Shown here: positions 4,620-64,000 of the stretch, piece by piece
Position numbering within the stretch: position 1 is the stretch's first letter
Layout: each line of letters begins with the position of its first letter
Source of the DNA: Rhynchobatus australiae
Lineage: Eukaryota
Assembly (NCBI GenBank): GCA_034780895.1
Contig: JAUZTB010000017.1
Location: 16,905,005-16,969,004, forward strand
DNA length: 64,000 nucleotides
Reading direction: 5' to 3'
Made by a program: the position numbers and the translations under genes
The notes under the pieces: model-generated
What the model saw: only the letters and a program-made list of their open reading frames with translations
Databases searched by the model: none
What the model was told of the DNA's origin: nothing

Positions 4620-4681
4620 CTTCGCAACATTCCTGTCAATATCCTCGAGCTCTTACCAAGGTTTGTATCAGTTTCACGCAG
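4620..4681 (-). CDS. vti1a: vti1a coding exon (equivalent of human exon 7), 62 nt: LRETDTNLGKSSRILTGMLR(R)
   Basis: ttttccattttccctttcAG|CTGCGTGAA...TTGCGAAG|GTaagg. It matches the recalled human LRETDANLGKSSRILTGMLRR; phase 0-2. Confidence 0.97.
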
Positions 4682-6321
4682 CTGAAAGGGAAAATGGAAA
4701 AGCAAAGGTTTACTTGGTAGAACATGACTAAATAGTTATTTCAGACACAAAAGTTCAACTTTCAAACTGAAAACAGGTCTCCACTGCCAATGATAGGAGT
4801 TCCTTTTTGCAGTTTTAGAAGAAAGACACTCATATTCTACCAAGAAATAAGTACGACTAGACTAGTACATCAAATAAAAGAATCTTTCTAGTTCCAAGAA
4901 AGCAATGCACTCTCACTATATAACCCATATATTTTTTTCTTCACAAGATGACAAATCTAATGTATATTTTCAGCATTAGCAGTTTAAAAAATATTGTGAC
5001 AGAAGCCAACTTTGATCATTTATATTCTTCATGCAAAAGAACTTTAGCTTTAATAAAAATAATTTGGCAAACACAGGAATAAGTTGAAACAGTCAAGGTT
5101 ATGACCTGGAATTCATAAAATGTTTGTGCATTGTAACAACATTTTATAAGGAAAATGATATTTCTCTATTCTACCTTTCTTTCCTAGGTAAAAAGACAGA
5201 ATTCCTTTAAGGTATATTCATGCACAAAAGTGCACACACCAATCTTTTGGGGAGTCTAAAGCTAGCATGTTGTTTTTGTACTGATCCCTTTTGCTACCTT
5301 TGTAGAAATATGCAGTCATAAAAAAAACCTCTGAACTGTGCTCTTGAAGTTAGAATTCTGGAATGAACAAAGAGGAATGAATTTGCATTTCTTTTCCCAC
5401 ACTAGTGTGGAATGCATACAATCTGAGAGTTGGAAAAACTGACTGCACAGATTGCTTGATTATAAATTTAAAATACAATGGCTGACGAAAATCAAACATG
5501 AAGTACATTTTCAGAGGTCTACAGCCAACCCGAACAAGCTAATGTTGCATTACGTCAATTAGCTGTTTTTTTTCAAAACTCCAGCCCAACCAGGATATGT
5601 AAGGGGGAAGGTTAAGAGATAATGAAAAAAAATGCAAATAAGAAAATTAAAAAGAATAATTCACATAAAAATTATCCTGTGGTGTTGTATGAACCAATTT
5701 TCAGTATTTACATACATTAAATATAAGGTTATAGGGATATGAGAATTATAAGACATAAATGGTAAGATACACAAACACAACAAATGATGACCGAAATTTG
5801 AAAATCTTGAATAAAGATTACATCCCTTGCTCATTTCACTACTCAGAAAAAAGACAAGGCATGGTTGTGCATTGAAATTTTTTTTATTATGTTCAGAAAA
5901 CTGAGGCACTTTTATTTGGGCACTATTTGCAGATCAATGCAATATTTTTTCAATAAACTCCAGATGGCAAAAGCTAACTGACATTTATTAATCCAAAGTT
6001 GTATGAAGAAAACAAACTTGAAATTAGATACAGTTCATGCAAGAGCACGAGTGTTAGCAACATTAATTTTGGTGGTTTTCATCCTACAGACAGAAATCTT
6101 TAAAAAACTGTCTATAAAAATCAGTCTAAATTAGGAATAGAGGTGGGCTTTTTCCATTTAGCTGTTAATATGCATTTACCGGTGTAAAATTTTATAGTTT
6201 TATGTTTAAAAAAAATCAGAGTTCTTTAAAACCCTTGATCTGAAGATGATTATTTAGCTTCATATTTTTTTTAAACAGAGATTGACCAAAACCCACTTCA
6301 GTTACACAATTTCAAACTCAC

Positions 6322-19488: not shown

Positions 19489-20190
19489 CCAATTTACCAA
19501 GTCACGATGGATCCCATGTGCTTTAATCCTCTGGATCAGTCTACCATGAGGGACCTTGTAAAATGCCTTACTAAGGTCCATGTAAACAACATCCACGCCC
19601 TACCCTCTGAAATTGTCACCTCCTCAAAAAACTCAATCAGGTTTGTGAGACATGACCTTCCCTGCACAAAGCAATGCTGACTATCCTTAATAAGGCCATG
19701 TTTTTCCAGACATGAGTAAATCCTATCCATGAGAAACTTCTTGAATAATTTCCCTGCCACTTATGTAAAGCTCATTGATCTATAATTTGCTGTATTATCC
19801 CTATTGCCCTTCTTAAACAAAGGAACAACACCAGCTATTCTCTATTCCTCTGGGACCTCACTTGTGGCTAAAGAGGATATAAAGATCTCTCTCAAGGACC
19901 CAGTAATCTCCTCTCTCATCTCCCTCAATAACCTGGATAGATCCCAACAGGCCCTGGAACTTATCCACCATAATGCCCTTCAGGATACCCAACTCCCCCT
20001 CCTCGACACCAACATGCCTTAGAATATCAGCATAACTGTCCCTGATCTCACTATCCTCCAAGTCCTTCTCCTTGGTGAATACCGATGTGAAGTACTCATT
20101 TAGTATTTCACCCACCTCCTCTGGCTCCAGGCATAAATGTCTTCCCTAACTGGTCCTACCCTTTCCCTAGCTGTATGTATGCAAAATGCC
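19489..20190 (-). mobile_element. CR1 LINE fragment (RT N-terminal region), inverted
   Basis: Minus ORFs contain GEILNEYFTSVFTKE and LIKDSQHCFVQGRSCLTNLIEFFEEVT. Confidence 0.9.
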
Positions 20191-60937: not shown

Positions 60938-61022
60938 CAGTTTCAACGGTCAGTTGATATCCAGCCTCCAGTCTCCGTGTTGACCTTTCCAACCGCTCTG
61001 TATTATCCAACAGGCATGCTCT
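60938..61022 (-). CDS. vti1a: vti1a coding exon (equivalent of human exon 5), 85 nt: RACLLDNTERLERSTRRLEAGYQLTVET
   Basis: ttttgtttcAG|AGAGCATGC...GAAACTG|GTaagg. The translation matches the recalled human VTI1A segment RAHLLDNTERLERSSRRLEAGYQIAVET; phase 0-1. Confidence 0.97.
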
Positions 61023-63350: not shown

Positions 63351-63527
63351 AGTATACTTGTTTTGTATAAATTATACCGAAATTTATTTTATTTTTATAT
63401 TATGCAAGGTAAAAAAAATCTTGTAGGATTTGTAACATGGTTCTCAAAAAAAATTAACAGTTGACAGAAAACACCAATATTTTCCAAACAAACACAGATA
63501 CCTAACAACAAACAAGGATGCACTCAC

Positions 63528-63548
63528 CTCTTCACGCAATTTTATCAA
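63528..63548 (-). CDS. vti1a: vti1a alternative 21-nt microexon (LIKLREE, Vti1a-beta insert)
   Basis: Minus strand reads ...tttctgtgcgttcacAG|TTG ATA AAA TTG CGT GAA GAG|GTgagtg. It has a long polypyrimidine tract and a consensus donor, and is phase 0-0. The peptide equals the 7-aa insert known from mammalian brain Vti1a-beta and lies upstream of the RA(H/C)LLDN exon as expected. Confidence 0.95.
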
Positions 63549-64000
63549 CTGTGAACGCACAGAAAGATGAAAAGGAAAGAAATGGCAGGGATGAAACATC
63601 TGTCATACAGTTGGGTATAACATTAACTATGACAATTTATCTGTTTACATACTTCGTATTAAGAAATCATAGAAGAACCTCTTTAAAGACCCTAAAAAAG
63701 CTCATGCAAAGAGAATTTTCAAAACCACATTTTGAAAGAACAAAGATTAGTTTTCCCTTTGTCAACACAGACTGTTACAATCATTTGTCTCTTATTTAGT
63801 ACGCGAGAGGTATGTTTGCCGCAATCTTCAAAGAGAGAAAGAGGGGCTTCATGGCAATGATTTTAAAGAGGCAAAGAGAAAATGGAGCATTATTTTAGGG
63901 AGATGATGCGTAAACCTAATCGCAGTTATCTAGTTAATAGTTACAATTAAAGCAAAGCCATTGTGAAATCACATTAATAAAAAAATTACATTAATCAGGC

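Follow-up and report, generated by a model that had tools for sequence, protein, structure and literature searches.

A ray copy of the 21-nt Vti1a-beta microexon with flanks resembling those of SRRM3/4-regulated neural exons

Inspection of a 64,000-nt stretch of the genome of Rhynchobatus australiae (G000:C17:16905005-16969004; hereafter, the window, meaning this whole stretch) revealed a 21-nt exon of vti1a on the minus strand, which we read as the ray copy of the VTI1A microexon that marks Vti1a-beta, the brain isoform of this vesicle-fusion protein. We put the probability of this reading at roughly 86%, including the parts on tissue use that are drawn from its orthologues, i.e., that most tissues probably skip the exon and that SRRM3/4 probably bring about its inclusion in neurons. 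The exon as such is already known, as its neural pattern and regulator have been published for zebrafish and human and it is present in shark and ray gene models. Given those models and the zebrafish studies, the ray exon is therefore ordinary rather than a novelty. The features used in the analysis are listed below.

63528..63548, minus strand: 21-nt alternative microexon of vti1a, phase 0-0, encoding LIKLREE (residues 117-123 of the 226-aa isoform)
63522..63527, minus strand: 5' splice site GTGAGT (donor GAG/GTGAGT)
63549..63601, minus strand: 3' splice site, with its AG, about 50 nt without another AG, 85% pyrimidine at -45..-12 and three UCU
63557..63559, minus strand: UGC at -11..-9 of the acceptor, a putative enhancer in the SRRM3/4-type position
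63462..63521, minus strand: UGUU-rich tract right after the donor, six TGTT in 60 nt, a candidate splicing element
63703..63708, minus strand: single UGCAUG (RBFOX consensus) at -160..-155, the only one within 1 kb, a candidate site
60938..61022, minus strand: vti1a exon 5, 85 nt, in which the Qb-SNARE helix begins, 28/28 residues matching P0097
6322..6392, minus strand: vti1a exon 6, 71 nt, holding the SNARE zero layer, 23/23 residues matching
4620..4681, minus strand: vti1a exon 7, 62 nt, 20/20 residues matching

Positions 63548-63528 are bounded by AG and GT and read LIKLREE in minus-strand frame 0, exactly as an earlier note on this DNA had described; its remark that the exon is absent from the list of open reading frames is true and trivial for seven codons. 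The peptide occurs once across the six frames of the window, where it was expected by chance 3e-4 times, or 1e-6 times with AG/GT ends. A chance intronic match to LIKLREE is ruled out by the latter expectation together with the correct intron, strand and phase and the orthology, and we regard it as vanishingly improbable. Scanned blindly for strong exons, the minus strand gave 45 rows, with the microexon and exons 5 and 7 among them. Compared with the exons printed in the supplement of PMC12626420, the ray exon is identical at 20/21 nt to that of zebrafish and at 20/21 nt to that of mouse, and is one synonymous base off from each. Exon 4 ends in phase 0 (ENQ/GT) 1,988 nt upstream of the microexon and exon 5 starts in phase 0, 2,505 nt downstream; since both flanking exons are in phase 0, inclusion keeps the frame.

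The host gene lies on the minus strand and spans ~261 kb. Exons 1-4 and 8 fall outside the window on the same contig (G000:C17). Neighbouring stretches yielded exons 1, 2 (59 nt) and 3 (111 nt), exon 4 in its 3' part, and the last exon, which encodes the membrane anchor. Over nine exon pieces, 213/213 readable residues equal those of RefSeq XP_051883181.1, the 226-aa isoform X1 of a sawfish, insert included. In the elephant shark model the microexon is the only piece identical to the ray, and every other piece differs. The protein holds Pfam domains PF05008 and PF12352, the terminal exon is hydrophobic, and the PDB matches gave E values of 1e-38 for Vti1a versus 5e-7 for Vti1b. With Habc, Qb-SNARE motif and membrane anchor all present, the gene is the orthologue of VTI1A rather than VTI1B. 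The naming of the gene and exon in the earlier note was thus right, and so was its guess of a cartilaginous fish: the top five matches in the exon 3 search were all rays with 100% identity, which together with the sawfish identity identify a batoid.

Features reported for SRRM3/4 targets are a UGC between the pyrimidine tract and the AG, a long AG-free zone and a strong donor (10.1101/2024.09.17.613571). The ray exon has this architecture: it is 21 nt long in phase 0-0, a TGC starts at -11, no further AG occurs upstream until -53, and the donor reads GTGAGT; candidate branch-point adenosines are predicted at -44 or -55, and a second TGC lies at -39. The UGC, the pyrimidine tract, the UG/U-rich tract and the TGCATG were all located where the earlier note had placed them. 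A TGC starting in -20..-6 was found in 0/6 of the other readable vti1a acceptors (six rather than seven constitutive acceptors were compared, as the 5' part of exon 4 and its acceptor are an N stretch). Because a TGC also occurs in -20..-4 before 388 of 1,289 intronic YAGs (30%), the UGC alone is modest evidence.

Further evidence came from the orthologues. The zebrafish exon (DreEX0084665, 21 nt) has a PSI of 78.6 in neural tissue, 4.8 in muscle and 0 in liver, with a dPSI of -49.7 upon eMIC depletion, and the human exon (HsaEX0070740) has a neural dPSI of 76.5 and gains 91.5 upon eMIC overexpression (PMC12626424). Both UC repeats and UGC were scored present for the zebrafish and mouse exon (PMC12626420), and a UC-rich tract and an upstream UGC are what these exons have in common with the ray copy. 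Across two classes of SRRM3/4 targets, UGC was reported in 79% and 74%, respectively, and as not strictly required for the SRRM4 response; microexon sequences from shark to mammals kept that response in human cells, in a study whose main text does not name VTI1A (10.1101/2024.09.17.613571). In the ray assembly, two SRRM_C (PF15230) loci scored above the cut-off, on C66 and C57 (L042, L043), and these eMIC-encoding loci are likely the putative srrm3 and srrm4. Orthology thus argues strongly for SRRM3/4 control of the ray exon, and makes nerve-specific inclusion likely. The SRRM3/4 control proposed earlier is supported for the zebrafish and human orthologues; the UGC at -11 fits it, being a motif that is neither rare nor always needed for an SRRM4 response. 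"Neural" may here mean neural plus neuroendocrine, because VTI1A is listed among genes with islet microexons (10.1101/2022.04.02.486809); in the zebrafish endocrine pancreas the PSI is only 1.2 (PMC12626424). Splice variants of Vti1a have been described as enriched on mammalian synaptic vesicles (PMC9197314, a review).

The sequence right after the donor is unusual. Positions +7..+66 are 75% G+T with six TGTT. When the gene was tiled into 4,000 stretches of 60 nt, 3 reached that G+T level and 1 reached that TGTT count; these figures may include the tract itself and stem from a test picked after the tract was seen. The seven other vti1a donors are followed by 0-1 TGTT each. This tract is the rarest feature of the flanks and more striking than the RBFOX site. 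CELF-type proteins bind UGU, and the exon could be neural but mainly driven by a CELF-type binder on the downstream tract or by PTBP1 derepression. SRRM3/4 would then play a lesser part, and the upstream UGCAUG would have no effect or a repressive one. We consider this alternative clearly unlikely. Besides the rarity of the UGUU array, it would fit the zebrafish result, in which inclusion dropped by ~50 points from ~78 upon eMIC depletion and not to zero (PMC12626424), and the report that PTBP1 targets the UCU-rich pyrimidine tracts found at microexons (PMC4317164). The gain of 91.5 points in human cells upon eMIC overexpression (PMC12626424), the listing of both UC repeats and UGC for the mouse and zebrafish exon (PMC12626420) and the UGC kept at -11 in the ray all speak against it, and favour SRRM3/4 as the main regulator.

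The earlier note had further pointed to the UGCAUG as the RBFOX site, a weak point of its reading. There are 117 TGCATG in 244 kb of the gene, giving P = 0.07 for one within 160 nt upstream and P = 0.14 for one on either side, so the evidence from the site is weak and not clearly beyond chance (7-14%). TGCATG was absent within 1 kb downstream of the microexon, the side on which both the enrichment and the enhancing effect of RBFOX sites near microexons have been reported (PMC4317164). As a single site, on the wrong (upstream) side and near chance, it led us to reject RBFOX activation.

With SRRM3/4 as the probable regulator, the splicing machinery by itself would recognize the short exon with its long AG-free acceptor poorly, and SRRM3/4, through the -11 UGC, would bring the exon into use in neurons. 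Inclusion would then add one heptad directly ahead of the Qb-SNARE motif. The insert (residues 117-123) sits between Habc (PF05008, 1-91) and the SNARE motif (PF12352, 132-196) and is exactly one heptad long, and counting in steps of 3/4 from the zero-layer Asp165 puts Leu141, Leu134, Leu127 and the insert Leu120 on the same face. AlphaFold (70-row alignments) returned one helix at 115-225 with the insert versus 114-218 without it, at moderate confidence (pLDDT 62 for residues 111-120 and 81 for residues 121-130; pTM 0.42). On the other side, a SNARE motif in isolation is generally regarded as mostly unfolded. The insert is covered by 0/5 of the matched PDB sequences, and 2nps_C (the Vti1a SNARE chain) aligns only from residue 124, i.e., from the first residue of exon 5. 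From these models, the extra heptad thus probably extends the SNARE helix N-terminally, and Leu120 is predicted to be in register with the SNARE layers. The longer helix may tune complex assembly or the sorting of the neuronal vesicle form, and would not change core fusion. Two 2025 studies deleted the exon in zebrafish, with mild consequences, i.e., altered social leadership (PMC12626424) and lower telencephalic activity (PMC12626420), and the role of the seven residues in Vti1a was noted as open (PMC12626420). The one-heptad reading is a testable guess at what these residues do.

Gene models of relatives were then compared for the insert. Among the named models fetched, LIKLREE was detected in at least one model of 14/20 cartilaginous-fish genera; the clusters were represented by at most 15 members each, so the six blank genera are not absences. 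In the chimaera Callorhinchus, 5/7 entries had the insert. RefSeq isoforms X1 of 226 aa with the insert exist for several rays, sharks and the elephant shark (e.g., XP_051883181.1, XP_055502856.1 and XP_042192605.1); they already hold the peptide of the ray exon and carry no information on tissue or regulator. Paired models of 226 and 219 aa were found in rays, a shark and the chimaera, and a skate-like cluster from assembled sequencing runs had the insert in 2/6 members and lacked it in 4/6, which is consistent with both spliced forms being produced. Skipped and included forms are thus both represented in models of close relatives of Rhynchobatus australiae. The expectation that automated annotation could easily miss the exon was borne out for Hypanus and Rhincodon, whose X1 models have 219 aa without the insert, but failed as a general statement given the 14 genera with insert-bearing models, and we rejected the idea that the exon is hidden from annotation.

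The same models bear on whether the ray exon could be used without strong tissue restriction, or be a rarely used remnant, which we judge very unlikely. The Hypanus and Rhincodon X1 models and the six of 20 genera with no insert-bearing model among those listed would be expected under such a reading. Against it, models with and without the exon occur together in 14/20 genera, the match of 20/21 nt to both zebrafish and mouse comes with intact splice sites, and the blank genera lose their weight with at most 15 members considered per cluster.

Beyond cartilaginous fish, 447 proteins were fetched, many of them redundant or not spanning the junction, and 127 had the insert (120 LIKLREE and 7 LLKLREE; the three of these seven that were checked are from poison frogs). 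Mouse NP_001280614.1 and rat Q9JI51 have it at the same junction. The presence of the insert in holocephalans (chimaera), sharks, rays, bichir, coelacanth, teleosts, amphibians (frogs) and mammals places the peptide, as judged from protein sequences, in the jawed-vertebrate ancestor, as had been proposed. For the neural switch, to which the same age had been ascribed, the dating would rest on the zebrafish and human data plus the motifs.

The search in lamprey and amphioxus that the earlier note recommended was run on protein models, and its lamprey half gave a result: the insert was found in 0/5 cyclostome models, three of lamprey and two of hagfish (XP_075920691.1, XP_075920693.1, XP_032801002.1, UniRef100_UPI00358EA07C and UniRef100_A0A8C4NGH8; proteins only, exclusive of the lamprey X1 isoform), which are orthologous and alignable across the junction. 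No amphioxus-named protein was among the matches; the distant non-vertebrate or unnamed proteins that were aligned lacked the insert. A search with lamprey VTI1A gave 837 matches, and the best 120 of them included no further close cyclostome cluster. These protein models give a weak hint that cyclostomes lack the insert. A more far-reaching reading would make the exon a near-frozen invention of jawed vertebrates that is absent from cyclostomes. Its in-register heptad would create a surface for binding or zippering that is specific to neurons, and the UGUU array would act beside SRRM3/4 as a second control element not described before; we offer this as speculation and hold it to be rather improbable.

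Compared with known systems, the ray exon shares gene, junction, 21-nt length and LIKLREE with the VastDB events HsaEX0070740 (human) and DreEX0084665 (zebrafish). Rat and mouse Vti1a-beta (Q9JI51 and NP_001280614.1, 224 aa) have the same LIKLREE, whereas the ray host protein is two residues longer, in exon 4. The ray exon resembles the SRRM3/4 (eMIC) neural microexon programme as a short in-frame exon with a strong donor, a long AG-free acceptor and a UGC near the AG, in a host gene of vesicle traffic. It differs in the UGUU array after the donor, which is not among the features of the programme as reported in the portions of the sources consulted, and the dependence on SRRM3/4 has been shown for its orthologues only. 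The literature search found no description of the exon specifically in cartilaginous fish or cyclostomes in the accessible parts of the sources; two preprints with elephant shark data (10.1101/2024.09.17.613571 and 10.64898/2026.09.05.749416) may cover it in their supplements. The ray adds one more early-diverging copy of the exon flanks; a comparison with those of teleosts and mammals would tell old control elements, perhaps the -11 UGC or the UGUU tract, from later ones.

Several further observations were made on the gene and its surroundings. Intron 5 is 54,545 nt long (6393-60937) and makes up most of the window, and the introns beside the microexon are only ~2.0 and 2.5 kb. Short peptide stretches in intron 5 (e.g., near 19694 and 26643) bear a resemblance to decayed LINE-type reverse transcriptase. 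On the minus strand ahead of vti1a exon 1 lie two 71-nt exons (G000:C17 17088688-17088618 and 17099575-17099505) that look like a long-chain acyl-CoA synthetase, one of them with a weak AMP-binding_C match (E = 0.056); presumably they belong to ACSL5, the neighbour of VTI1A in human.

At the other end, a weak tblastn match (E = 0.001) to the alternative C-terminus of a Narcine vti1a model lies ~20.4 kb past the low end of the window (window-equivalent -20431..-20523), and many ray and shark vti1a models (189/196 aa) stop at the end of exon 7, without the membrane anchor. The 3' UTR (L027:1100-3190) is well kept in relatives, with a 56-residue reading from a sawshark model matching at 96%. At least half of its sampled words were present in 10 listed sequencing runs; the search with exon 8 and the 3' UTR listed 23 runs, none of them on record as RNA. 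In exon 4 (L022, ~5538-5591), the models of cartilaginous fish, lamprey and hagfish have two extra residues relative to bony vertebrates, a distribution that suggests a loss on the bony-fish stem.
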